Shown piece after piece: positions 2,719 through 55,945 of a stretch of DNA of 60,717 nucleotides. Each line of letters starts with the position of its first letter. Position 1 is the first letter of the stretch. This DNA comes from an uncultured Thermoplasmata archaeon. Lineage in GTDB: Archaea > Thermoplasmatota > Thermoplasmata > Halarchaeoplasmatales > Halarchaeoplasmataceae. Position numbers and translations under genes: made by a program. The notes below the pieces were generated by a model, which saw only the letters and a list, made by a program, of their open reading frames with translations, was not told the DNA's origin and did no database searches. The stretch lies in the NCBI GenBank assembly GCA_964585175.1, contig CAZPCW010000004.1:1-60717 (forward strand). Reading direction: 5' to 3'.

Positions 2719-2934
2719 TTGGTTCTAGCTTCACTTTTATTACCTTTAGATTACTCTAGGGAGGGGAGTGGAAGCTACGATCACTATGTGGACAATTGGG
2801 AAGACGTTGGTGTAGAAAACCTTGTAACTGCGGTGCTCACTGATTGGAGAGCTTATGACACCTTGGGCGAAGCGCTAGCCCTTTTCATCGCTCTCTTCGG
2901 AGTTTACTCAATCTTAGGAGGTGATAAAGAATGA
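2719..2934 (+). CDS. Small MnhB-related subunit (MbhE-like), with a TTG start
   Basis: NLVTAVLTDWRAYDTLGEALALF matches the conserved MnhB-domain motif. A 4-nt ATGA overlap couples it to the next gene. Confidence 0.55.
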   Translation: MVLASLLLPLDYSREGSGSYDHYVDNWEDVGVENLVTAVLTDWRAYDTLGEALALFIALFGVYSILGGDKE

Positions 2935-3353
2935 AGATGTCACTTATCGTCAGGAAAAGTTCGAAACTTCTAGCACCTTTCCTAGTAGCTTATGCAGCAT
3001 ATCTATTAGTCTTTAGCCATATCAATCCCGGAGGGGGTTTCCAGGGCGGGGTTATCCTCGCGGTGAGCGTTATCTTGTTGATCACCTCTCACGGCTACAA
3101 GTCGGTCAAAGAAACATTTAGAGTCGATCTGGCGAAAAAGATCGAAAGTTTTTCAGCTGTGCTGATCCTCTTAATGGCGATAGCCGGTCTTTTCTTCGGG
3201 GCCTTCTTTTTGAATTTCATTAAAGGTGGAGAACCAGGTACGTTATTTAGTGGAGGTACCGTCGTGATATTCAACATAGCGATCGGATTGAAGATAGGAT
3301 CGGCGTTCGTTCTGCTTTTTTACACTCTGACGAGGTGGTCGGAAAGTGATTGA
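2931..3353 (+). CDS. mrpB: Mrp/Mnh antiporter subunit B
   Basis: HINPGGGFQGGVILAVSVILL motif and four TM segments. Confidence 0.8.
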   Translation: MKMSLIVRKSSKLLAPFLVAYAAYLLVFSHINPGGGFQGGVILAVSVILLITSHGYKSVKETFRVDLAKKIESFSAVLILLMAIAGLFFGAFFLNFIKGGEPGTLFSGGTVVIFNIAIGLKIGSAFVLLFYTLTRWSESD

Positions 3354-3663
3354 ATCGATAACCGCGGGATATCTCACGGCTGAAAAGGCCGGTATTGCTC
3401 TTATTCTCGTTGGCCTTTATGGTCTAATGGTCAAAACCGATCTTATAAAACATGTGATTTCTATCAATATCATCTCTACTGGAGTGGTGCTCTTTTTCAC
3501 GAGCCTGGGATATGTACAGGGTGGAAAGGCACCACTGATCCCCAATGCAGATATGGTCGATCCTCTTCCCGCTACGCTTATGTTGACAACTCTCGTTATC
3601 GATGTGGCGATCACCTCTTTCGCTTTGGCTCTGATTATAAGGATGAGGAGGGATGAAGATTGA
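3346..3663 (+). CDS. mrpC: Mrp/Mnh antiporter subunit C (NuoK-like)
   Basis: A 105-aa three-TM protein with GLYGLMVKTDLIKHVISINIISTGV and DPLPATLMLTTLVIDVAITSFALALI. Confidence 0.85.
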   Translation: MIESITAGYLTAEKAGIALILVGLYGLMVKTDLIKHVISINIISTGVVLFFTSLGYVQGGKAPLIPNADMVDPLPATLMLTTLVIDVAITSFALALIIRMRRDED

Positions 3664-5243
3664 TACCGCTGATCGTAGCTTTGCCTCTTCTATTTGCATT
3701 TCTGTTCACTATATCTACATATTTCGATGTAGCTAGGATATACAGAGAAGGATTGTTTCTAGTAGGGATATTTTCTCCTATACCTGTATTCATATTGAAC
3801 TTAGAACAGCTGCCGGTCAACACTGTAATCGGAGGTTGGAGCAGGATAGCGGGGATAGAAGTCGGTATAAACGGGGTGAATTATTTCTTCCTCTTAGCGG
3901 CCTTAATCGTATTTCCATTGGTGGCGGTCTACAGTTTGAATTATTTCGATAAATCTCACGAGAGGAAGGGATTAGTGTCTAAATACTCAAAATTCACTCT
4001 AATACTTTTACTTTATAGTGGAGTATTAGGAAGTTTCATCAGTAAGGATCTTTTCGATTTCGCGGTTTATATGGAAATAGCTTCTATCTCAGCGATCATA
4101 CTTGTGGCTAGTTCATCTACTGAAAAATCAAAATTAGCCTCGTTCCGATATTTGATTCTGTATCTCCTTTCATCATTCTTCTTCATCTTCTCGATTGGTA
4201 TAATATATGTCAAAACAGGTTATCTCAATTTTCATCTGATCGAGCATAATCTGGTGATGGACAGAGAAATAAAAGTCGCTATAGCAGTGGCCTTTATAGC
4301 GTTGATTACGAAGGCCGGTATATTCCCGCTGCATTTCTGGCTTCCCGAGGCACATTCAAGAGCGGATACCCCTGTGAGTGCTCTCCTTTCAGGAGTAACG
4401 GTAAAAGTACCCGTTTACGGCATGGTATTATTCTTACAACACACGAATGTTGGGTTTTTGACCTATCCTTTGATCGTTGTTGCCTTTGCCTCTATGATCC
4501 TAGGTATTATCATGGCGCTTCTCCAAAAAAACGCTAAGAAATTGTTAGCCTATCACACTGTTTCCCAGATGGGGATCGTGTTGATAGCAGTTTCGGTTTT
4601 AGACGTTTATGCGGCGGCCCATTACGTGTTAGCTCACGCACTTTTCAAATCAGGTCTATTTCTTTCTATAGGAGTTTTGGTTTCTTCCTACGGAACTAAA
4701 GATTTAAAAAAGCTCTCATTCGGTGGAAGAAGGATTTTGATAGCTTCCGTGGTAATATTGAGTCTAGCTATCGGAGGCATCTCTCCTCTGATCGGAGCTT
4801 TCGGAAAACATGAGATAATGACTGAATTCAGCAGTATCGGAATTTACCTTCTATACGCGGGTTCGATAGGCACATTGATATCGTTTTCAAAATTGAATTA
4901 CATGCTTTTCAAATCAGGAGATCAAAACTTTATTGAAAAAGGTTACCAGTTAGAGAGTACTGTAGCTTTTCTTTTTGCACTCCTGACTATCGGTTTTGGG
5001 GTCTATTATTATCCAAAATTGCATAGGATGGATATTCTCCTGCTGGTCACAGCCATTGTGGTTTTTCTAGGACTAAAATATTTGAGGATACTGGAATGGA
5101 AGATACCTAAATATTACGAAGAAAACATGAGAGGTCTAGCAGAGCAGATCAATTTTTACACTGCAGTTTTTGTATTCTTTAATATCTTGTTTCTTATTGT
5201 CGTACTTTTTAAAGATATTTCCGAAGTGTTTTCTATCTTATAG
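3660..5243 (+). CDS. mrpD: Mrp/Mnh antiporter subunit D (NuoN/NuoM-like proton-pumping subunit), copy 1, with a TTG start
   Basis: Polytopic 527-aa protein with GIFPLHFWLPEAHSRADTPVSALLSG and LLAYHTVSQMG motifs of the NuoL/M/N-MrpA/D family. Confidence 0.85.
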   Translation: MIPLIVALPLLFAFLFTISTYFDVARIYREGLFLVGIFSPIPVFILNLEQLPVNTVIGGWSRIAGIEVGINGVNYFFLLAALIVFPLVAVYSLNYFDKSHERKGLVSKYSKFTLILLLYSGVLGSFISKDLFDFAVYMEIASISAIILVASSSTEKSKLASFRYLILYLLSSFFFIFSIGIIYVKTGYLNFHLIEHNLVMDREIKVAIAVAFIALITKAGIFPLHFWLPEAHSRADTPVSALLSGVTVKVPVYGMVLFLQHTNVGFLTYPLIVVAFASMILGIIMALLQKNAKKLLAYHTVSQMGIVLIAVSVLDVYAAAHYVLAHALFKSGLFLSIGVLVSSYGTKDLKKLSFGGRRILIASVVILSLAIGGISPLIGAFGKHEIMTEFSSIGIYLLYAGSIGTLISFSKLNYMLFKSGDQNFIEKGYQLESTVAFLFALLTIGFGVYYYPKLHRMDILLLVTAIVVFLGLKYLRILEWKIPKYYEENMRGLAEQINFYTAVFVFFNILFLIVVLFKDISEVFSIL

Positions 5244-5325
5244 GATGGGGTTCGTGAATGATCGGAATAAAAGAGATACTGATAAAGACGAGACCTTCTC
5301 TTGACTCCACAAGGAGGGGTGATGA

Positions 5326-6906
5326 GTGATACCGTTGATCGTGGTCTTGCCTATATTATTTGCATTTTTGGTTACTATATCTACGTATTTAGGTGTAGAT
5401 AGGATATACAGGGAAGGATTGTTTCTATTGGGAATATTTTCTCCTATACCGGTTTTTATCTTAGAGATAGATGACCTCCCTGTAAATAGGATTTTAGGGG
5501 GATGGGGAAGGATCGCCGGTATCGAAGTCGCTATAGACCAAGTAAACTATTTTTTTCTTCTTGCAGCGTTAATAGTATTTCCGATGGTTGCGATGTACAG
5601 TTTAAATTACTTTGATAAAACTCAAAAGCAAGAAGGAAATGTTGACAAACATTCTAAGTTCATCCTCATACTTCTCCTTTATGGAGGAGTACTTGGCAGC
5701 TTTCTTGCAAGAGACCTTTTCGATTTCGCCGTCTATATGGAGATAGCCTCTATTTCCGCTATTATACTTGTAGCTAGTTCATCTTCAGAAAAATCCAAAT
5801 TAGCCTCATTTCGATACCTAGTTTTATATCTTCTTTCGTCTTTTTTCTTCTTTTTCTCGATCGGTTTGATCTACGTGAAAACCGGATATCTAAATTTTCA
5901 TCTGATCCAACAGAATTTGGTGATGAGTAAGGAGATAAAAGCTGCGATAAGTATAGCTTTTATCGCACTTATCATCAAAGCCGGTATTTTCCCTCTACAT
6001 TTTTGGCTTCCAGGAGCACATTCTAAGGCGGACACTCCCGTAAGCGCTTTACTATCAGGGGTTTCGGTAAAAGTCCCCATATACGGTATGATCTTATTTG
6101 TGCATTATACTTCCGTTCAATTTTTGACCCTGCCCTTGATGGTGGTAGCTTTCACCTCTATGATATCTGGAATCATATTAGCTCTATTTCAGAACGATGT
6201 CAAGAAATTATTGGCTTATTCAACTGTTTCTCAGATGGGTTTCGTGTTGATTGGTATATCTACACTGAATATATACGCAGTGTCGATCTATGTGTTAGCT
6301 CACGCCCTGGTAAAATCCGGACTATTTTTGAGTGTAGGTATACTGATAAGCTCTAAAGGGCACAAAAAGATCAATAGGTTATCATTGAAAAATAAGAAAA
6401 TATTGATAATACCGATAATCCTGTTAAGTCTGGGGATAGGAGGGATTTCACCTCTTTTGGGAGGATACGCAAAATATAATATTCTGACCGCACTCTCCGG
6501 ATTTGAAGTCTATCTTTTTTATTTAGGATCTATAGGGACCCTTACTCTTTTCACTATGTTCAACTATGAATTATTTGATCTTCGAGGCGATAAGAAGATT
6601 GATATCGGCTTAGAAGAAGTTATAATTTCCTTGATAGCTCTCCTAACTGTAGTTTTTGGAATTTATTATAATCTAAAATTTAAATTGCTAGATGTCATAT
6701 TGATATCCTCTGCCATTTTAATTTTTCCTATATTAGAATATTCGGGGCTGTTAGAACGGAATCTTCCAAAGTTTTATGAAGAGAATATGAATGGCCTCGG
6801 TAAGCAGATCAACTTTTACACAGCCGTGATAGTTGTGATGACTATATTTTTCCTCTTTTTCGTACTTTTTGAGGGCCTCATTTTAAAATTCATCCTCATC
6901 CTTTAG
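5326..6906 (+). CDS. mrpD: Mrp/Mnh antiporter subunit D-like, copy 2 (tandem paralog), with a GTG start
   Basis: A 526-aa protein co-linear with copy 1 over its full length. It has the same motifs, except HFWLPGAHSKADTP (Gly replaces Glu). Confidence 0.85.
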   Translation: MIPLIVVLPILFAFLVTISTYLGVDRIYREGLFLLGIFSPIPVFILEIDDLPVNRILGGWGRIAGIEVAIDQVNYFFLLAALIVFPMVAMYSLNYFDKTQKQEGNVDKHSKFILILLLYGGVLGSFLARDLFDFAVYMEIASISAIILVASSSSEKSKLASFRYLVLYLLSSFFFFFSIGLIYVKTGYLNFHLIQQNLVMSKEIKAAISIAFIALIIKAGIFPLHFWLPGAHSKADTPVSALLSGVSVKVPIYGMILFVHYTSVQFLTLPLMVVAFTSMISGIILALFQNDVKKLLAYSTVSQMGFVLIGISTLNIYAVSIYVLAHALVKSGLFLSVGILISSKGHKKINRLSLKNKKILIIPIILLSLGIGGISPLLGGYAKYNILTALSGFEVYLFYLGSIGTLTLFTMFNYELFDLRGDKKIDIGLEEVIISLIALLTVVFGIYYNLKFKLLDVILISSAILIFPILEYSGLLERNLPKFYEENMNGLGKQINFYTAVIVVMTIFFLFFVLFEGLILKFILIL

Positions 6907-8271: not shown

Positions 8272-9930
8272 TCACTCATTTCTATATTTCTCTCTTTTCT
8301 TTTCATCTAACTCTTTTTTCACTTTTTCTAGCACTTTTTCTTTGTCCCTATAATATGAGGAAATAATATGTGCGAAGTCTTTATAGTTGAATATCTCTTC
8401 TTTTTCCATATAATCGAGGACTTTCTTTCGTCTTTTTACCTCTCTCTCCATCTCCCTTTGAGTCCAATTTTTAGATTGAGCTACTTTATCATATATGTAA
8501 CTATGTCCGCTGTAATTATATGAATCGTCAGCGGGATTCCAAGTATATGCCTTGTTCGTGACGAGTTCCTCAGTATCCGGGTCCAGACCGACCACTTCTG
8601 TGATATTTTTTATCCGTCTTACCATCTTGGTTCCGACCTTTACCTTGGACTGCATTATAACAATGTCAAGAGCTCCGATGAGAGCTCTAGGAAGATTGAT
8701 AGGATCGTTCTCCATCCTGTTGACCATGGTCTGAACGTCCTCTGAATGGAAAGTCGTGTAAGCACTTTTTCCTGTAGCCATAGCCTGGAAAACTACGTAA
8801 GCTTCTTCGCCTCTCACCTCGCCGACCATGAGGTATTGAGGACGCTGTCTTAAGGCGGCTTGAAGGAGTTCGTACATGTCGATCTCGCCGGCTCTTTTTC
8901 CAGTATCTTCGTCTCTCTCACCGAAACCGCTTCGAGTGAGCAACGGAACCCAGTTGTCATGAGGAAGGTTAAGCTCACGTGTATCTTCTATACTGACGAT
9001 CTTGTCTTGGGGAGGAATGAATAAAAGGATAGCGTTCAAGGTAGTGGTTTTTCCCGAAGCGGTACCTCCGCAGATAAGCATAGACTGACCGTTCTCTATA
9101 GCTATCCAAGCATAAGCCATCATCTCGGGATTGAAGGTTTGGAATTTGATTAGATTTATAGGTGTGTAAGGTTCCTCTTCGAACCTCCTTATCGTGAAGG
9201 AAGACCCTTTTTGTGTGATATGGGTGCCGAGAGTTTCCTGCAGTCGAGAACCGTCGGGCATGGTAGCGTCCAGCATGGGATCCGCTACGGAAATATGCTT
9301 TCCACTTCGCTGGGCTAGCCAGATGACATAATTATCTAACTCGTCCGCGTCGTCAAATTTTACATTAGATTTCATCGAACCATACTTTCTATGGAATACG
9401 TAAATAGGGATTCCTACACCGTCGCAAGAGATATCTTCAGGATTTGGATCCTTCATTATTACATCTATCGAGCCATAACCTACGAAGTCCCTCCTAACGT
9501 AGTACATTATCCTCTCTTTGGATACAGGGGCCAGTTCCACATCGAGATCCCTTAATATGTTGCTCACTTTGTGTTCCAAGTACTCTCTTTTCTCTTCATC
9601 AGTTTCCAAGTCTATTAATTCTACTCTATCGATCAATCTATCATTAACAGCTTTCAGCACTTCTTCTTCATCTTCCGTAAGTTCAGGTTCGATCACTTCG
9701 TAAATATATTCATTTGAAGTATTATCGTATTTTATCCTCACATAAGTGTAAGGTTCTTCGACCGCGTTGATCTCTATCTCCTTCATGTTTTCCTCTGCGA
9801 TCTTTGGTATTTCTGTTATCTCTTCGGTGTAATCTGGTGAACTTTCCTCTTCTGAAGGGAGATAGACTTTTTTAGGTCTAGAGGTGCTGTTTATCATATC
9901 TTTCAACTTTTCTCCGATGTTCGTAGCCAT
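8272..9930 (-). CDS. Type II/IV secretion ATPase of the archaeal FlaI/PilB (GspE/VirB11) family, copy 2
   Basis: Walker A GGTASGKTT, Walker B/Asp box YLMVGEVRGEEA and a His box TTFHSE. Acidic N-terminal domain. Confidence 0.9.
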   Translation of the reverse strand: MATNIGEKLKDMINSTSRPKKVYLPSEEESSPDYTEEITEIPKIAEENMKEIEINAVEEPYTYVRIKYDNTSNEYIYEVIEPELTEDEEEVLKAVNDRLIDRVELIDLETDEEKREYLEHKVSNILRDLDVELAPVSKERIMYYVRRDFVGYGSIDVIMKDPNPEDISCDGVGIPIYVFHRKYGSMKSNVKFDDADELDNYVIWLAQRSGKHISVADPMLDATMPDGSRLQETLGTHITQKGSSFTIRRFEEEPYTPINLIKFQTFNPEMMAYAWIAIENGQSMLICGGTASGKTTTLNAILLFIPPQDKIVSIEDTRELNLPHDNWVPLLTRSGFGERDEDTGKRAGEIDMYELLQAALRQRPQYLMVGEVRGEEAYVVFQAMATGKSAYTTFHSEDVQTMVNRMENDPINLPRALIGALDIVIMQSKVKVGTKMVRRIKNITEVVGLDPDTEELVTNKAYTWNPADDSYNYSGHSYIYDKVAQSKNWTQREMEREVKRRKKVLDYMEKEEIFNYKDFAHIISSYYRDKEKVLEKVKKELDEKKREKYRNE

Positions 9931-9940
9931 AAATCTTACC

Positions 9941-10873
9941 TCACACTAGCAGTCCTATTCCTCCGAACAATACTCTAAGAGTTAAAAATCCTATAAGTAG
10001 CAGGATAAAACTATGCTTCATTCCGTTCGTTATCTTTCCGTTCTGTAAGACACCCGCGACGATCCCGTCTCCAACAGCGTGGGCAAATACTGACAGGGCA
10101 AAAATATACTGAATTTTTGGAATCCTCTGAGTCTGTATCTCTACAGCTTGAGGACCTTGTGCTTCGGATCCGGCGCCACCGACAGCTGAACCGGCTTGAG
10201 CCATCTGAGCCAAAAATTGGGTATTTAAGATAATTATGACAACGATGAAGACCGCGAAGGATATGTAAATCACGGCGAGATAAGAAGTCATGGCGATCTT
10301 CTGTTCGTCTTCAGAGCTGTGAACCTCTTTCGCGTCCTGAGCAACCATGTTTAAGACGTCGGCAACGTTACCTCCTGCCTCGTTCGCCTTGGTAATTATA
10401 GCGACGACTCTATTAACAAGATCCGTGTTCACTCTCTCCGAAAACAAACTTAAAGCTTTGTTGGCGGGAACACCCCATTGTATTTGGGCGGCCATCTTCT
10501 TAATTTCTGGTGTAAGCTTTCCATATCGTCCTCCTGAAGCCACGACTATCGCATCAGCCAAGGTCATACCGAATCTTCCGGCCTCAGAAACATCTCTAAG
10601 AAAATCTGGGAGCCTTCTTTCTATCATTTTGATCTGTTTTTGCTTATGACTCACATAAAAACCGAAGGGGCCAAAAAAAGTCATAGCTGCCAACATCCCC
10701 CAATCCAAAATATCTAGTGGGATGGCTTTAACCCCTACAGCGGAAAGGAGGCCTATAAATGTCAAAGCTACCGCTCCTATTGAGGATATTATCAATACTT
10801 CTTTAGCATACCCAAGATTTAAGGCCTTTTCAAATCCAGTTTTTCTTTCATCTTCTGCCATATTATCACTCAA
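9941..10873 (-). CDS. T2SSF-domain membrane protein (FlaJ/PilC C-terminal half, TadC-like). The likely ATG start is at 10861.
   Basis: RLPDFLRDVSEAGRFGMTLADAI...NRVVAIITKANEAGGNVADVL is the T2SSF pattern, flanked by TM segments. The ORF is in frame with the upstream ORF across a single TAA. Confidence 0.75.
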   Translation of the reverse strand: MSDNMAEDERKTGFEKALNLGYAKEVLIISSIGAVALTFIGLLSAVGVKAIPLDILDWGMLAAMTFFGPFGFYVSHKQKQIKMIERRLPDFLRDVSEAGRFGMTLADAIVVASGGRYGKLTPEIKKMAAQIQWGVPANKALSLFSERVNTDLVNRVVAIITKANEAGGNVADVLNMVAQDAKEVHSSEDEQKIAMTSYLAVIYISFAVFIVVIIILNTQFLAQMAQAGSAVGGAGSEAQGPQAVEIQTQRIPKIQYIFALSVFAHAVGDGIVAGVLQNGKITNGMKHSFILLLIGFLTLRVLFGGIGLLV

Positions 10874-23723: not shown

Positions 23724-26189
23724 TCACATTGATATGGGAATATTCTCCATTTCTCTCTTGACTTTTTCAGCCTTTTTTTCCGCGCCGCTTTTAGAGAGCG
23801 AAAGCACGGCTTTTCTATAATTTTCTGCCAAAGCCTCTGGATCATTGTTTTTCTCTTGGACTTTTGCTAGGGAGAAGTAAGTAAGACCTAGTTGATACTG
23901 CTGTCCCAGTTCATTATAAAGAGATATAGCTTTATTCAGATGATCTTCGGCTTTAATCTCTCTGTCGGTTTCTAGGTAAGCTTTTCCCAGTAATGCTTCT
24001 GTGAAGGCTCTTTCTCTTTTATCTTCTGACAGCATGGACTCTTTGGCATCCTTGGCTGATTTTATAGCCTTTTCATAACTTTCGTTTTCCATATGACTTT
24101 CTGCTAATGATAGTAGAGCCGCTGTTTTCAGATCCTCGTACTCGGTCTGTATAGGGCCAGCACGTTCCTCGTGAAATTGAGTCCTGAACCGTATCTCTGC
24201 ATCTTCTAATTCTTTAAGCACTTTGTAAAGCATTCCGCTCTTTCTTCTCCCCCTCATGTCTCTATTTGATTTGTCCAGTTTGCTCCAGGATTTTAATCCC
24301 ATCTTGAACGGTTCTATTGCCTGTTCTTCTCTGCCCTGTTTTTTCTCCATCCTAGCTAATATGAAATATGAGGAAGTTAGTAGATGATGGTCTTCTCCAT
24401 GTACTAGTATTTGGATAGCTTTTTTGAGATCTTCTTTTGCTTTCTCGTAATCATCGTTCTTGTTCCAGATCTCTCCTCTCCTCGCATATATCCTGCCGAG
24501 TTCATCGTCTCTTTTTAGTTTCTCTTTTATGTTTTTAGCTATCCTTTCTGCTTCGTTGAGATCATGTATAGCTCTGTCATATTCTCCCAGTTTTTCCTCG
24601 ACCTTACCTAAACTGAGATAGGCTCTAAGCTCCCATCTTTTTTCATCCGTTTCATCTAAAAGCGTTTCAAACAATTTTTTACTCTTTTCGAATTCTCGAT
24701 TCACACGTCTTGCTTCTGCCTCGTAGAATATGATGAGCGGATTGTCTTCTTTTTCTTCAATTTTGGAAAGAAGCTGTATAAGAACCTGGCTGTAACCGTT
24801 AGAAATTATTTCTGAACCGAGTTCTTCAAGCCATGATTTGGCTTTTTTGATTTCATCTGAGCTGATCAGATGGTAAAATTTTTCTAGTTCTTCTCTAGAG
24901 GAAAGATTGTTTTTTTCCTCAAAATATTTGGCCGCTAGAGCATCAAGATCTTTTCTTACTTCTTTTGATATCATCTTTTTCTTTTTTTTTCTAACTCCGT
25001 CCGGCACTGTGATCTTTTCTTCTTCATTCTCTATTATCAGAGGTGTATCTATTGCTTCCTGAATGTTCTCGTCGTTGATTGCTCCTATTCTTTTCAATTC
25101 TTCTTTCTCAATGGGATATCGAAAGATGGATAGATAATTCAGTGCTAAAGAGGTCTCAAAACTTATTTCTCTCGAAAGTATCTTATCAAAATCCTCGTAT
25201 TCACTCTCCTCTAAATACCTTTTCTTGTATATCGGTAGCTCCTCAGGAAAATCTAGAACCATAGAATCTTCTAAGGCTTCTTTGATTCCATCTCCCTCTG
25301 TAGCTAGTAATATCCGTATATGTTGAAATTCCGAGACATCTCTAGCTATTTTCAGTATTATCTCTTTCAAATCTGGTTGAAGGTCTATACTGTCGAATAT
25401 CAATAGGGCAGAAGAGTATTTGAGATCATCCTTTAGTTTTTTCAGGCTGGTTCTAGGATTCAGCCATTCTGCTAAATCCCTATAATTGGATAGATTTACC
25501 TTTCCGAGCTCTTTGAGAAAGCTTGAAAGACTATCCCATAGATCGATCGGTGCGCTGTGTTCCTTGACCTTAAAGAAAAAAATATTAGTATTTTCCTGGA
25601 ATATACGGGTGAATGCACCCAATCGGTATGGAAAATGACCTTTCAACAAACCGGTTCCTTCTTTGTCCCTGTACCAATCTTCTAGCACATCAGTTTCTAT
25701 ATCTTTAAATGTTTCTTTCATAGGAAGTCCTGACCTATAGAGCACGGGCGCTCCTTCTTCACCCCCAACTCTTACCTTTATTCCTCCGTCCTCCTGTTTT
25801 AAAATCGTATCAAGGACACTCATCTCGGACCGGACGTATTTATCAACATTCTTGACCTTGACCATTCTCTCTTCTCCGTATACATCTATATCTACAGTAG
25901 ATTCCTTCATCTCTTTTCGTTTCTTTTTTGCTTCGTTAACACCATCCTCTGTCAGATAATAGGTTTTCATCCTCTGTTTTTTTCCCTTCACCCTACTAGT
26001 CTTTTCCTCCAAGAACTCTGACTCTTTGAGTTTTTTAAGGGCGTAGGATATCGTATTTTGCCTGAGACCCAATTGCTCTGACATTCCACCCTGAGTAACT
26101 TCTAATGGCTGGGTGTAATCATCCTTAGATTGTTCATAATCTAAAAGGTGGACCAATATTTTGTCTTTAGACGTGAAAGAATCGCTCAT
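23724..26189 (-). CDS. wHTH / degenerate STAND-like NTPase / TPR-repeat protein (putative regulator or sensor)
   Basis: N-terminal MarR/TrmB-like winged helix (MSEQLGLRQNTISYALKKLKESEFLEE). A central region has a Walker-B-like LLIFDSIDL, but I found no GxxxxGK[ST]. There are at least 6 TPR-like repeats in the C-terminal ~330 aa. Confidence 0.55.
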   Translation of the reverse strand: MSDSFTSKDKILVHLLDYEQSKDDYTQPLEVTQGGMSEQLGLRQNTISYALKKLKESEFLEEKTSRVKGKKQRMKTYYLTEDGVNEAKKKRKEMKESTVDIDVYGEERMVKVKNVDKYVRSEMSVLDTILKQEDGGIKVRVGGEEGAPVLYRSGLPMKETFKDIETDVLEDWYRDKEGTGLLKGHFPYRLGAFTRIFQENTNIFFFKVKEHSAPIDLWDSLSSFLKELGKVNLSNYRDLAEWLNPRTSLKKLKDDLKYSSALLIFDSIDLQPDLKEIILKIARDVSEFQHIRILLATEGDGIKEALEDSMVLDFPEELPIYKKRYLEESEYEDFDKILSREISFETSLALNYLSIFRYPIEKEELKRIGAINDENIQEAIDTPLIIENEEEKITVPDGVRKKKKKMISKEVRKDLDALAAKYFEEKNNLSSREELEKFYHLISSDEIKKAKSWLEELGSEIISNGYSQVLIQLLSKIEEKEDNPLIIFYEAEARRVNREFEKSKKLFETLLDETDEKRWELRAYLSLGKVEEKLGEYDRAIHDLNEAERIAKNIKEKLKRDDELGRIYARRGEIWNKNDDYEKAKEDLKKAIQILVHGEDHHLLTSSYFILARMEKKQGREEQAIEPFKMGLKSWSKLDKSNRDMRGRRKSGMLYKVLKELEDAEIRFRTQFHEERAGPIQTEYEDLKTAALLSLAESHMENESYEKAIKSAKDAKESMLSEDKRERAFTEALLGKAYLETDREIKAEDHLNKAISLYNELGQQYQLGLTYFSLAKVQEKNNDPEALAENYRKAVLSLSKSGAEKKAEKVKREMENIPISM

Positions 26190-26390
26190 GTGTGAAAATA
26201 TAAAATGTTAAATCCCTTATTTGAAGATTTCCAATACTTATAGAAATTTTTTTACCTGGTAAAAAATTATTTTCGATCCTTAGGATTTGTTAAAAATGTC
26301 CGTGAAGTTTTCTAAAAAAACTACTGCAGATAGATAAATAACTAGGAGAAAAAAATTAGGAGATAGGATCACGGGTTTTATCACCGTTCA

Positions 26391-26624
26391 TCATCTATCA
26401 CCGTTAAAGACACGAACTTGAAGATTAGAATTTTTCTTCAAGTTTTCATCGTCTTCTGAGGATTTGTCCATCTTAACATAAGATAGAGTTATAGTTTGTT
26501 TGAGAACGTTGACACCCTCTTTATATCTTTGTGTTTCTACTGAAATAGGTTTCCATCTAGGTCCTAGGTATCTAGTCAACTCAAGTAGGGAAGAATTTTC
26601 ATTATCGCTTTCATTTTCCGTCAT
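26391..26624 (-). CDS. Small hypothetical protein, paralog A of a two-member family in this window
   Basis: The 77-aa protein shares SLLELT..LG..WKP.SV.T.R....L.QTITLSYVK....SNLQ..VF.GD with the ORF at 28006-28236. It has a conserved promoter-like upstream element. Confidence 0.5.
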   Translation of the reverse strand: MTENESDNENSSLLELTRYLGPRWKPISVETQRYKEGVNVLKQTITLSYVKMDKSSEDDENLKKNSNLQVRVFNGDR

Positions 26625-26701
26625 GTTATCAAATACTGTTTGTGCCTTTATCGAATATAAACCAAATCCCGGTTTATCAATCTTGATAACTAGATATCAA
26701 A
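26625..26701 (-). promoter_or_regulatory. Conserved upstream module of paralog A: an A/T box plus a 44-nt dyad-rich element
   Basis: In gene orientation, TTTATATT lies ~29 nt before the ATG. The block 26658-26701 matches 28270-28313 at 43 of 44 positions. It contains TAAACC-N7-GGTTTA, TTATCAA-N2-TTGATAA and TTGATA-N6-TATCAA. Confidence 0.55.
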
Positions 26702-26882
26702 ATTACTAGGTTGGTATCAAATATACTAAGAAAATAACAATAAAATTAGGATAAGCTTCCAGCCTGTCCTTTGAAAATTCGAGAAAAGGTATAAATATTC
26801 GTAGTAGAAATAACACAAATGATATTAGCTTCTCTCAGGCACAATCGATAAACCTGATACCATCTTAAGAAGGTCAAAAATT

Positions 26883-27917
26883 ATGGCAGGATCAGACTCA
26901 GAAAAAAAGAGTAAAAAATTATTCTACAATCGTTTAGCTAGAGCTATCATTCCCGCCGGAAAACAGACGGAAACGGGAGAAGATATCTATGATGATGAAG
27001 ATTGGACTAATATGAAGATAAAACTTACTGATCAGCACTTCGTTTATGAGAAGGAGGGAGAAAAAGGGACTATCGAGGTAGATGATATTTACTATATCGA
27101 TAGGGTATTTCCCCACCCTAAAGCCGATTCCCCGAAAGTCCTTAGTTTCAATTATCAAACCGAGGAGGGCGATTTCGTAGCACTAATAAAAAACAGAACT
27201 ACCAGATCAAAAGAGATTCTAAAAAAGAGACTTTTGAGACAGATAATCAAGGATGCGAATATATGGTATATCTCTCCTAGAAGTGTTGGACTGCAAGACT
27301 CAGTCAACCAGGGATGGAATGAAGGGGTATTCAAAATAGGAGAGGACAATACCTTAAGGATAGAAAATACAAATGGTGAGGTCGTTACGACTATTCCTCC
27401 GGAAGACGTGATAAGGTTGAACCCGATCACCAAAGCGAAGAGAGTCAATCTTAAGATATTTTATTGGATAGAAGATGAAGTCCAGGTTGATCTAGTGTAC
27501 TCTACCGAGATACCACTAGAATTGGTGAGTGATTTTTTCTATACAGATTATCTAGAGGAAGAAAAGGAAGAAAGGGTATCGGATTTGAGCCCGAAAGAAC
27601 AAAAGACACTCATGGCTATGATGGAAAAGGAAGATGAGCAGGAGGAGGAAGTCACCTTATCGGAAGAGAAATTGATATCGAGTCTATCGATGAAGGAGGA
27701 AGAAGCTCAAGAGATCCTATCGTCTCTTGAATCGAAAGATTTGATTTGCAGGATGGGTTCTAAGATACTTCGTACTTTTTCGGGTGTAAACAACACTCCT
27801 GAGAAAATAGTCGAAAAAGAAGAAGAAAACAAAGGAAAAGAATTGAAAAAAAAGGCGAAAGAACTCAAGAAGAGACTTGAGGCTTTGAAATCGATGAAAG
27901 ACGAAAAACAGTCTTGA
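26883..27917 (+). CDS. Acidic hypothetical protein with two similar beta-rich modules (PH/GRAM-like?), a possible small wHTH, and a K/E coiled-coil tail
   Basis: Internal similarity between KIKLTDQHFVYEKEGEKGTIEVDDIYYIDRV and FKIGEDNTLRIENTNGEVVTTIPPEDVIRLNPI. C-terminal KELKKKAKELKKRLEALK. No family is firmly recognised; it is faintly reminiscent of archaeal CheF/DUF439. Confidence 0.4.
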   Translation: MAGSDSEKKSKKLFYNRLARAIIPAGKQTETGEDIYDDEDWTNMKIKLTDQHFVYEKEGEKGTIEVDDIYYIDRVFPHPKADSPKVLSFNYQTEEGDFVALIKNRTTRSKEILKKRLLRQIIKDANIWYISPRSVGLQDSVNQGWNEGVFKIGEDNTLRIENTNGEVVTTIPPEDVIRLNPITKAKRVNLKIFYWIEDEVQVDLVYSTEIPLELVSDFFYTDYLEEEKEERVSDLSPKEQKTLMAMMEKEDEQEEEVTLSEEKLISSLSMKEEEAQEILSSLESKDLICRMGSKILRTFSGVNNTPEKIVEKEEENKGKELKKKAKELKKRLEALKSMKDEKQS

Positions 27918-28005
27918 ATATTTTTTCTAGAGGATTTTAGAAGTAGAAAGTGTTAATAGAGTGTAGGCTAGGAGAAATGGGTAGGTGAAATGCCAATGCC
28001 GTATA

Positions 28006-28236
28006 TCAATCCCCTTGAAATACTTTTATCTGCAGGTTAGATTCTTTATTCAATTCATCTTCTTCGTCAGGAGGATTTGTCACTTTTACGTATGAGAGAG
28101 TAATGGTCTGCTGAAGCAGGTCATTTCTTTCCCTGTGTCTTTTTGTTTTTACTGAAACGGGTTTCCATCCGGTCCCTAGAAGTTTAGTCAACTCTAAAAG
28201 GGAATATCCCTCTTCTACACTTTTGCTTTCCGACAT
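28006..28236 (-). CDS. Small hypothetical protein, paralog B
   Basis: The 76-aa protein is identical to paralog A at 40 of 76 positions in my hand alignment. It has the same upstream element at the same spacing. Confidence 0.5.
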   Translation of the reverse strand: MSESKSVEEGYSLLELTKLLGTGWKPVSVKTKRHRERNDLLQQTITLSYVKVTNPPDEEDELNKESNLQIKVFQGD

Positions 28237-28313
28237 GTTATCGTATGCTGTTTGTGCTTTCTTAAGATTTAAACCAAATCCCGGTTTATCAATTTTGATA
28301 ACTAGATATCAAA
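28237..28313 (-). promoter_or_regulatory. Conserved upstream module of paralog B: an A/T box plus a 44-nt dyad-rich element
   Basis: In gene orientation, TTTAAATC lies ~29 nt before the ATG. The block 28270-28313 is near-identical to 26658-26701. Confidence 0.55.
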
Positions 28314-28660: not shown

Positions 28661-29122
28661 TCATAGTATACTTAACCCATCCTCAGGTATATCTTCAGAA
28701 ATAAAATTGTAATTACTCTCATCGTTTGCTGTATCTAAATCTATCAATTCGATTTCTTCAATTTTTTCATATGCAGGATCAGGACTTATCAATGGTTCTT
28801 CACAATGTATTGAATGTGCTGAATGGATAAAATGTTCTATCTGGAGGGTTAGGATTCCTTCATACTTATGTTCTAGTTCTAATGCTGTAGCTAAAATCTC
28901 TGGAGTAAAAGAAAGTAAATCGATTCCCTCCTTCTCGATTTCTGTTATCAATGCCTCGTAATCTAAAATATCTTCTATCTCTTGCATCAAATCATGGATC
29001 TCTAACACAGTGAAAATCGAAGTTTTTGAACCTTTTATTTCGTCCTCATACAAGAATAATGAATCTATCTCGATAGAATTTTTATCTATTGCATTGAGGA
29101 CGATATCCGTATCGAGGTACAT
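28661..29122 (-). CDS. PIN-domain (VapC-like) putative ribonuclease. The start is placed at the internal ATG (MYLDTDIVL) rather than the track start at 29191.
   Basis: MYLDTD N-terminus typical of PIN, later acidic positions (VLEIHD, LISPDPAY), and a GAGGGAG ribosome-binding-like motif just upstream of the 29122 ATG. Confidence 0.6.
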   Translation of the reverse strand: MYLDTDIVLNAIDKNSIEIDSLFLYEDEIKGSKTSIFTVLEIHDLMQEIEDILDYEALITEIEKEGIDLLSFTPEILATALELEHKYEGILTLQIEHFIHSAHSIHCEEPLISPDPAYEKIEEIELIDLDTANDESNYNFISEDIPEDGLSIL

Positions 29123-29244
29123 AATCTCCCTCAGAGATAAAAAAATTTTAAAGTATATAAGTTTTTTTATAACATATTTATATTCCTCCATCTGATATTA
29201 AGTCCATGATAATCATATTTATGATATATAGGTTTACATCGATA

Positions 29245-34409: not shown

Positions 34410-34543
34410 GGGCTCGTGTTGTAGCAACTCTGTTCCGATAGGACAGGGCTGCAATGGATATCATCGGGGCTTCCGGAGCCCCGAACCCGGGTTCGAATAT
34501 CGAACTGGAATTCCCAGTTCGAACGAAAATCCCGGCGAGTCCG
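34410..34543 (+). tRNA. Candidate intron-containing tRNA gene (134 nt, no encoded CCA). The visible anticodon loop UUCCGGA gives CCG (Arg), but identity is uncertain.
   Basis: Acceptor stem GGGCUCG (34410-16) pairs with CGAGUCC (34536-42), including G3:U70, with discriminator G. The anticodon arm is GGGGC-UUCCGGA-GCCCC (34466-82). The T arm CCGGG-UUCGAAU...CCCGG is interrupted by ~32 nt (34492-34530). About 30 extra nt lie in the D region, and I could not fold a canonical D arm by hand. Confidence 0.5.
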
Positions 34544-34760
34544 TCAAACTTGTTTTGACGGGCAGTTGGAAATCTTTGATTTCCGACGAGTCCGTTTACA
34601 AATCTCTGATTTTAACCGGGCACGTTAGAAATCTTTGATTTCCGACGAGTCCGCTAAATCACGAGTTCTTTAAATGAGGGAGAATAGGAAAGATGTTCAC
34701 ACCTTTCCTATCGATTTGCTTTAGTAGTTAGTCGAAAATATTCGATTTCCGGCAAGTCCG
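34529..34760 (+). repeat. Four copies of a tRNA-3'-end-like motif (hairpin + TTTCCGRCRAGTCCG) in tandem downstream of the tRNA
   Basis: ATCCCGGCGAGTCCG (34529-43), GATTTCCGACGAGTCCG (34578-94), the same sequence again (34637-53), and GATTTCCGGCAAGTCCG (34744-60). The 26-nt stretches 34569-94 and 34628-53 are identical. Each copy is preceded by a hairpin, for example GTTGGAAATC-TTT-GATTTCCGAC. Confidence 0.7.
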
Positions 34761-34812
34761 TTCTTCTTTAGAAAAAGCCGTAAACTTCGGTCCCAAGGCT
34801 ATCTTAAAAAAA

Positions 34813-55534: not shown

Positions 55535-55622
55535 AGTGGTGGAATAACAAAGATTGGTATATGGGTTTTTGCCTTAATAGAAAAGTTGGACTTCTTTCCT
55601 TTAGATTTATTATTGAAAAAAG

Positions 55623-55738
55623 GTAAGGGGTCGGTTTTAGACCCCAAAGTTCTCACGGGTTTGTGAGGCGGATTGCATTACTAACAATAGAGCATTATCT
55701 ATTTATATTATACGGATTGATTATACAGACCGATAATC
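55623..55738. repeat. Structured intergenic repeat, copy 1 (candidate sRNA gene on the minus strand)
   Basis: Hairpins GGGGTC-N7-GACCCC (55627-45), CTCAC-N6-GTGAG (55652-67) and GATTGATTAT-N8-ATAATCAATC (55716-43). An invariant 20-mer TGAGGCGGATTGCATTACTA (55664-83). An A/T box ATTTATATTATA. Confidence 0.8.
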
Positions 55739-55823
55739 AATCGACTTAACATTCTTACCTGATATCTCGAGTACAGCCTTAAGAGCCTTTTTACTATATT
55801 TTTGGAAAAAGGAGGAAAGAATA

Positions 55824-55938
55824 GTAAGGGGTCTTTTTTAGACCCCATGCCCTCACGGGTGTCTGAGGCGGATTGCATTACTAGTAAGGGTGCATTATCT
55901 AAATATATTATACGGGCCAATTATCTAGACCGATAATC
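55824..55938. repeat. Structured intergenic repeat, copy 2 (200-201 nt downstream of copy 1)
   Basis: Same architecture as copy 1: GGGGTC-N7-GACCCC (55828-46), the identical 20-mer (55864-83), an A/T box AAATATATTATA, and a hairpin ATTATC-N6-GATAAT. It is roughly four-fifths identical to copy 1 by eye. Confidence 0.8.
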
Positions 55939-55945
55939 GTTTGCT

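Follow-up and report, generated by a model that had tools for sequence, protein, structure and literature searches.

A promoter element matching the haloarchaeal CsmR box precedes a family of orphan small-protein genes in uncultured Thermoplasmata

In Haloferax volcanii, motility and cell shape are regulated by CsmR (HVO_1209), a winged-helix protein of 13 kDa whose gene lies upstream of arlA1/arlA2 (Nussbaum et al., PLoS Genet 2026; PMC13286277). Its motif from chromatin immunoprecipitation sequencing (ChIP-seq), TATCA(N4)TGATA, lies upstream of the B recognition element (BRE) and TATA box of archaellum, chemotaxis and cell-shape genes (PMC13286277). The fla/arl promoters of Methanococcus maripaludis and Pyrococcus furiosus are served by EarA, a winged-helix factor thought to help recruit transcription factor B (TFB) (PMC13286277). 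Here we analyze a contig of an uncultured Thermoplasmata archaeon (GenBank assembly GCA_964585175.1, contig CAZPCW010000004.1, positions 1 to 60,717; this whole 60.7-kb stretch is referred to as the window), in which two paralogous genes for small proteins, A and B, are each preceded by a nearly identical block of DNA. The block contains the palindrome of the CsmR motif directly upstream of the BRE region and the TATA box. The same pentamers occur in the Thermococcales glycolytic motif, TATCAC-N5-GTGATA, which is bound by the TrmB-family factor TrmBL1/Tgr and belongs to a sugar-metabolism regulon.

The 44-nt blocks upstream of A (26658-26701) and B (28270-28313) are identical at 43 of 44 positions and are separated from the ATG by 33 nt in both cassettes; alignment confirmed what a preliminary description of the locus had stated on both counts. 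From the distal half-site to the ATG, 66 of 77 nt are shared between the two copies. The block is present twice in the window, with no other copies, and not at all in shuffled sequences. When the upstream regions of 13 family members were aligned on the ATG, TTATC-N4-TTGATAAA turned out to be invariant in all 13, taking the form TTATCAA-NN-TTGATAA in most of them. TTTA(A/T)AT starts exactly 11 nt past TTGATAAA in 12 of the 13 promoters and is followed by about 22 nt with a loosely conserved CACAAA, while GATA(A/C/T) stands immediately 5' of the ATG in all but one (L139). A distal TTGATA half-site is found in 11 promoters, being missing from the solo genes L139 and L142, and the distance from the core to the ATG is 62-66 nt. 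The BRE-region spacer has a constant length across all relatives, its sequence being kept only between the window and the syntenic locus L001. Three dyads had been noted in the block at the outset. One of them, TTATCAA-N2-TTGATAA, is thus found in all relatives and another, TTGATA-N6-TATCAA, in 11 of 13, whereas TAAACC-N7-GGTTTA is perfect in the window only, with a shorter version in L001. Not being conserved beyond these two loci, the last was rejected as a functional unit; it is largely a by-product, because ...GATAAA abuts TTTAAAT. The A/T box, previously placed about 29 nt before the ATG, actually occupies positions -37 to -30 (TTTATATT and TTTAAATC in A and B, respectively). Since the TATA box is found at this position and the small-gene promoters have no Shine-Dalgarno sequence, transcripts would start 5-10 nt before the ATG. 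In this respect the original proposal of a factor site just upstream of BRE/TATA combined with a short leader or none holds up well. A scan for sigma-70 promoters and terminators was uninformative, the host being archaeal.

The window palindrome, T-TATCA-A-NN-T-TGATA-A, coincides with the CsmR motif TATCA-N4-TGATA. We scored the window with a matrix derived from 50 Haloferax sites (S10 table of PMC13286277; 12 informative columns). Both sites reach the maximum of 15.79 bits and rank first among 121,404 positions, the next-best position scoring 13.01 bits and the median Haloferax site 12.06. TGATA and TTTAT are spaced by 13 nt here (in 12 of 13 promoters) versus 14 nt in the 34-nt Haloferax motif. 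We consider it very probable that the element is the operator of a transcription factor fused to a core promoter. That it belongs to the CsmR type and has a link to motility seems to us rather more probable than otherwise.

The products of A and B have 40 of 76 residues in common (53%, BLASTP E = 4e-28); together with the list of open reading frames (ORFs), this bears out the paralogy and the coordinates first assigned to the two minus-strand genes. Identity of their coding DNA is 0.66, 0.87 and 0.38 at codon positions 1, 2 and 3, with proportions of synonymous (pS) and nonsynonymous (pN) differences of 0.71 and 0.27, and by this pattern of substitution both genes are protein-coding and under purifying selection. 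In the alignment of the two cassettes, similarity begins sharply at the 44-nt block, spans the short leader and the ORF and ends at the stop codon, with none left either 5' of the block or 3' of the stop codons. The duplication is old, because silent sites are saturated and the flanks are unrelated. It is hence extremely improbable that the identity of the blocks is an artefact of a recent duplication, gene conversion or a mobile repeat of the miniature inverted-repeat (MITE) kind. The within-genome identity of 43/44 is, to be sure, slightly above most between-genome values, but the cassettes do not have the uniform identity of a recent segmental duplication, and promoters are as similar between genomes as within one: the 50-nt promoter block of the window is identical to that of L001 at 40-47 of 50 positions (47 for copy B against L001b). 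Third-position identity between orthologs of the window and L001 is about 0.4 and synonymous divergence is saturated, amino-acid identity being 64% for the tetratricopeptide repeat (TPR) protein encoded next to A, 72% for the CheF-like protein encoded between the cassettes and 81% for a nearby protein of the pyridine-nucleotide oxidoreductase family (Pyr_redox in Pfam). Since the promoters are near-identical across genomes whose silent sites are saturated, selection on the DNA element accounts for its conservation, and the initial impression that the block is more constrained than the genes proved right. Nor does the block behave as a dispersed repeat. With up to two mismatches, the palindrome is found in the window at the two cassettes only, and in about 190 kb of DNA from related Thermoplasmata, versions with up to one mismatch precede family members and nothing else; every related copy goes with a single gene family. 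In a pattern scan of a genome collection, the matches listed were mostly chance bacterial ones, those in Thermoplasmata all lying 75-77 nt before the ATG of a homolog; two further carrier lineages were found in this way. The pattern extended by the TATA box had a single metagenome match, again a family member and with the same spacing to the ATG. Viral contigs contained 13 pattern matches, which we take as chance because none of these contigs has a small-protein homolog. A different possibility is that the block acts as RNA, forming alternative 5'-leader hairpins in the manner of an attenuator or a riboswitch. Although the dyads are able to form hairpins, this is a very unlikely interpretation. 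The half-sites are invariant and hence display no covariation, L139 and L142 have lost the distal arm with no compensating change, nothing is conserved upstream of the block and an Rfam search gave no match. Moreover, a canonical TATA box lies downstream of the palindrome, always 11 nt away from it and 30-37 nt from the ATG, so that the palindrome itself is probably not transcribed.

The link to motility comes from the neighbors of the small genes. The acidic 344-residue protein between the cassettes is probably CheF-like (Table 1), and its L001 homolog has a precomputed CheF-arch match as well. The gene order small, CheF-like, small, winged helix-turn-helix (wHTH)-TPR and coiled coil is kept in L001, whereas in L003 and L147 the wHTH-TPR and coiled-coil genes come after one or two small genes. 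In L003, CheW and large PAS kinases are encoded upstream of the small genes. In L145/L078, the small, CheF-like and wHTH-TPR genes reside within an archaellum cluster that includes a KaiC-like ArlH, archaellin-domain genes and three archaellins. The solo small gene of L139 lies close to arlH/I/J-like genes, and those of L142 and L006 have unrelated surroundings. The archaellin genes of L145 are flanked by five intergenic regions, four of which contain a CsmR-matrix site scoring 11 bits or more (4276-4291, 8446-8461, 9318-9333 and 10176-10191); dinucleotide shuffles gave a mean of 0.21 sites, and 0 of 2000 reached four. One L145 site, TTATCG-CTAG-GGATAA, precedes a TATA box by 8 nt and the ATG of an archaellin gene by 61 nt, a layout as in the small genes. 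The archaellin genes of L145 have Shine-Dalgarno leaders (TATCCGAAAGGAGG), unlike the small genes. Because weaker boxes precede archaellin genes, a wider regulon is implied. The CheF-like gene has a promoter core of its own, GAAAAGGTATAAATATTCG, which is conserved in L001. In the same stretch (window 26783-26825) there is a weak CsmR-like site, ATAACACAAATGATAT, at the expected transcription start, which hints that the same factor may repress the CheF-like gene. Thus, for a circuit whose function was at first left blank, context and motif now point to regulation of the archaellum and taxis. As a separate observation, a DUF835 protein accompanies archaellum genes and a small gene in two lineages (L139 5624-11296 and L145 938-2710). 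The L145 protein is fused to a bactofilin-like region, and that of L139 is encoded next to a 1426-residue protein rich in Ig-like domains.

Several points weigh against a CsmR-type, motility-linked element. The csmR gene has been reported almost only in Halobacteria and some Thaumarchaeota (PMC13286277). A 115-residue HTH_20 protein of Haloarcula, an unverified probe, detected no CsmR-like gene in the sampled DNA. Half-sites of the TATCA/TGATA kind are rich in A and T, and further archaeal factors use them with different spacings. There are no archaellum genes within the window, and the CheF-like homologs of L145 and L140 have no CheF-arch match at E <= 0.01. In addition, exclusivity of the box holds for the sampled DNA, and in the genome collection for the matches listed.

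Table 1. Features of the two cassettes and of the adjacent genes (coordinates refer to the window)
Feature	Coordinates	Strand	Remarks and basis
Small-protein gene A, 77 aa	26391..26624	-	Adjoins wHTH-TPR gene; ORF call, paralogy to B, pN<pS
Small-protein gene B, 76 aa	28006..28236	-	Convergent with CheF-like gene; same basis as A
Operator A, perfect 16-bp palindrome TTATCAATCTTGATAA (TATCA-N4-TGATA), predicted	26674..26689	.	Core invariant in 13 promoters; top CsmR-matrix score
Operator B, TTATCAATTTTGATAA, predicted	28286..28301	.	Palindrome scan and CsmR matrix
Distal third half-site A, TTGATA in gene orientation	26695..26700	-	In 11/13 family promoters
Distal third half-site B	28307..28312	-	Promoter alignment
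BRE-region spacer A, ACCGGGATTTGG	26662..26673	-	Promoter alignment
BRE-region spacer B	28274..28285	-	Promoter alignment
TATA box A, TTTATATT	26654..26661	-	-37 to -30 from ATG
TATA box B, TTTAAATC	28266..28273	-	Promoter alignment
GATAAC just 5' of ATG A	26625..26630	-	At predicted transcription start; may be an extra half-site
GATAAC just 5' of ATG B	28237..28242	-	Promoter alignment
Two T7 runs, probable archaeal oligo-T terminators	26314..26355	-	36-77 nt past gene A stop; putative terminator role
wHTH-TPR protein, 821 aa, candidate regulator	23724..26189	-	N-terminal winged helix and TPR repeats; narrow family
Coiled-coil protein, 379 aa	22489..23628	-	Downstream of wHTH-TPR gene in most relatives
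CheF-like gene, 344 aa, between cassettes	26883..27917	+	PF04283 CheF-arch, 35.5 bits against a cut-off of 25; syntenic in L001, L140, L145
Weak box-like site ATAACACAAATGATAT	26810..26825	.	12 nt downstream of CheF-like TATA box 26790-26797; 10.96 bits, rank about 13 of 121,404; function speculative

The loci collected by protein similarity and by the DNA pattern yield a family of 13 distinct members from about eight uncultured Thermoplasmata lineages, so the small ORFs, whose conservation in relatives could have been doubted, are indeed conserved. Homologs were found only in Thermoplasmata metagenome-assembled genomes. A word-indexed search of 5.8 billion proteins returned four relatives; among 1.84 billion representatives, a full profile search with HMMER matched four clusters. 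As was recognized from the beginning, the small proteins fall into no known family: there is no match in Pfam or NCBIfam and no significant one in the PDB profile search or, for the structural models, in Foldseek (best E 0.14 in PDB and 0.012 in BFVD). Two AlphaFold runs are concordant in topology, predicting one helix and three long strands after a disordered acidic N-terminus, with a modest confidence (pLDDT 62-64). The N-termini are acidic and hydrophilic, conservation spans the whole predicted fold and the core predicted to be structured (residues 12-52) is net basic, with charges of +2 to +7. Proteins encoded near the small genes have isoelectric points of 4.1-5.5, which suggests that the lineage is probably halophilic. 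Profile-profile comparison (hhalign) gave no support to a relationship of the small protein with the N-domain of the coiled-coil protein, the CheF-like protein or the Haloarcula winged-helix protein. Short ORFs beside the solo copies (135 aa in L139 and 141 aa in L142) were likewise set aside as being related neither to each other nor to the wHTH-TPR protein. Each small protein is best explained as an orphan cytoplasmic protein of 76-77 residues. As to its role, our guess would be an accessory or modulator of motility or taxis, possibly a ligand of the neighboring TPR protein.

As for the protein that would bind the box, our tentative first candidate is the wHTH-TPR protein, with a CsmR ortholog that has escaped notice only slightly less probable and some other factor not far behind, each of the three being less likely than not, and the small protein itself quite improbable. 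The wHTH-TPR protein, not a CsmR homolog, might act as a cluster-encoded regulator of the archaellum, its TPR part sensing a partner, possibly the small proteins. In favor of this, its gene is the next one downstream of a small gene in five lineages, and in L145 it belongs to the arl cluster; its family is about as narrow as that of the small protein (6 full-length homologs in 5.8 billion proteins) and its recognition helix, QNTxSY, and wing are as invariant as the palindrome. Its winged helix resembles the MarR/PadR/ArsR type, whose members bind palindromes as dimers, but similarity to characterized factors is marginal (PDB matches to PadR, MarR and ArsR proteins with E above 0.1), and a protein search with the domain found no matches. 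A 32%-identical TPR homolog, L148, is moreover encoded on a contig having neither box nor small gene. Conversely, the solo genes L139 and L142 retain the box with no TPR gene nearby, a fact that, along with the same situation in L006 (none of the three having a wHTH-TPR or CheF-like neighbor), speaks for the model proposed initially, namely that the small protein is a DNA-binding dimer reading the palindrome and autoregulating both paralogs. The presence of consensus boxes, within the sampled DNA, at small genes only and the positively charged core in an otherwise acidic proteome are in line with that model. However, the AlphaFold models contain neither a helix-turn-helix (HTH) nor a ribbon-helix-helix (RHH), and Pfam, NCBIfam, PDB profile and Foldseek searches revealed no recognizable HTH, RHH, AbrB, Alba or Sso7d-like fold or profile, so the supposition of autoregulation loses its footing. 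In Haloferax, the protein that binds this motif is an unrelated one with a winged helix, and the weaker archaellin boxes also speak against a purely autoregulatory circuit. A free-standing CsmR ortholog may be encoded elsewhere in the genome; the Haloarcula probe had no match in the sampled Thermoplasmata DNA. The Haloarcula marismortui plasmid pHMA288 (L150) carries TATCACGTGTGAAA followed by TTATATA at 4909-4945, upstream of an archaellin-like ORF absent from the plasmid gene table. The 115-residue HTH_20 winged-helix gene (2904-3251), 1.7 kb upstream of that ORF, may be a CsmR relative.

Some further observations were made in the window and related loci. At 55610-55940 on the minus strand, two units of about 200 nt that share 82% identity lie in tandem. 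In each, a box-like TTATCGGTCT(A/G)(G/T)ATAA is followed by about 8 nt, TATAATATA and GATAATGC, after which come about 75 nt containing two hairpins, a GGGGTC...GACCCC stem and a U-run (fold z-scores -2.5 and -3.2). With the CsmR matrix, the score of the first box is about 12 bits. These units are candidate small-RNA genes with a promoter layout as in the small-protein genes; they match nothing in Rfam and do not recur in the related loci. Arrays of short hairpins (GGAAATC-TTT-GATTTCC and similar), with three near-identical 30-nt copies, occupy 34480-34780, downstream of two short ORFs, presumably the ribosomal protein genes S24e and S27ae as judged by eye. A similar GGAAT...ATTCC array fills the gap between a small gene and the wHTH-TPR gene in L003 (10260-10420), and neither array matches an Rfam family. 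Tandem paralogs of 527 and 526 residues at 3660-6906, with about 76% nucleotide identity in parts, encode membrane subunits of the Mrp/NADH-dehydrogenase antiporter type (PF00361). Beside cassette B, a 176-residue PIN-domain-like ORF (28661-29191; 22.2 bits, just below the Pfam cut-off) is absent from the syntenic L001 locus.

According to our model, each cassette would be a monocistronic gene whose promoter reads TTGATA-N6-TATCAA-NN-TTGATAA, a 12-nt BRE region, TTTA(A/T)AT, about 22 nt and GATAAC directly followed by ATG. For gene A, the T7 runs past its stop codon make monocistronic transcription probable. The 16-bp palindrome would be the operator of a winged-helix factor that binds as a dimer and has the same specificity as CsmR of Haloferax (TATCA-N4-TGATA). 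Because the operator abuts BRE/TATA, the bound factor, whether activating or repressing, would control recruitment of TFB and TBP, and expression of the small proteins might thereby be tied to the archaellum and taxis regulon. One may go further and speculate that the small, wHTH-TPR, coiled-coil and CheF-like proteins constitute a new archaellum/taxis control module of halophilic Thermoplasmata, in which the wHTH-TPR protein is a non-homologous stand-in for CsmR at the same box and the small proteins feed back as TPR ligands or anti-activators. In this complete form the scheme is unlikely. Nonetheless, the locus offers new candidate components, namely the orphan 76-residue family with the best boxes in the locus, the clade-restricted wHTH-TPR protein and its coiled-coil partner.

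Comparison with described systems places the cassettes closest to the CsmR regulon. The arrangement of a small ORF adjoining an HTH-TPR protein resembles bacterial RRNPP systems in that respect only. There the small ORF encodes a signaling peptide and the HTH is of the XRE type, whereas the small proteins here have no signal peptide, are conserved over their full length and are predicted to fold, and the HTH is a winged helix. A peptide-receptor pair of the RRNPP kind was therefore rejected in view of the acidic hydrophilic N-termini and conservation across the whole predicted fold. The Thermococcales glycolytic motif is likewise an inverted repeat of TATCA/TGATA pentamers near archaeal promoters, but its pentamers are 7 nt apart versus 4 here. 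EarA is similar as a winged-helix factor bound upstream of BRE/TATA of archaellum genes, yet it reads short 6-bp repeats, not the palindrome of the small-gene promoters, and no EarA-like protein was seen here. With the CsmR box the differences are of another kind. The host is an uncultured Thermoplasmata lineage, from which csmR has not been reported, the strongest sites precede an orphan small-protein family absent from Halobacteria, and there are an extra distal half-site and a start-proximal GATAAC. The cis-logic itself has been published for Halobacteria (2026); what is new is the lineage, the orphan targets and possibly the regulator. What the two systems share is the half-sites and spacer, the extended consensus TTATCA/TGATAA, the placement directly upstream of BRE/TATA and, judging from the relatives, probably the association with archaellin and chemotaxis genes. 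The occurrence of a CsmR box at the same promoter position in archaellum clusters of Thermoplasmata suggests either that this control of motility is older or more mobile than thought or that a convergent factor has come to use the same site.

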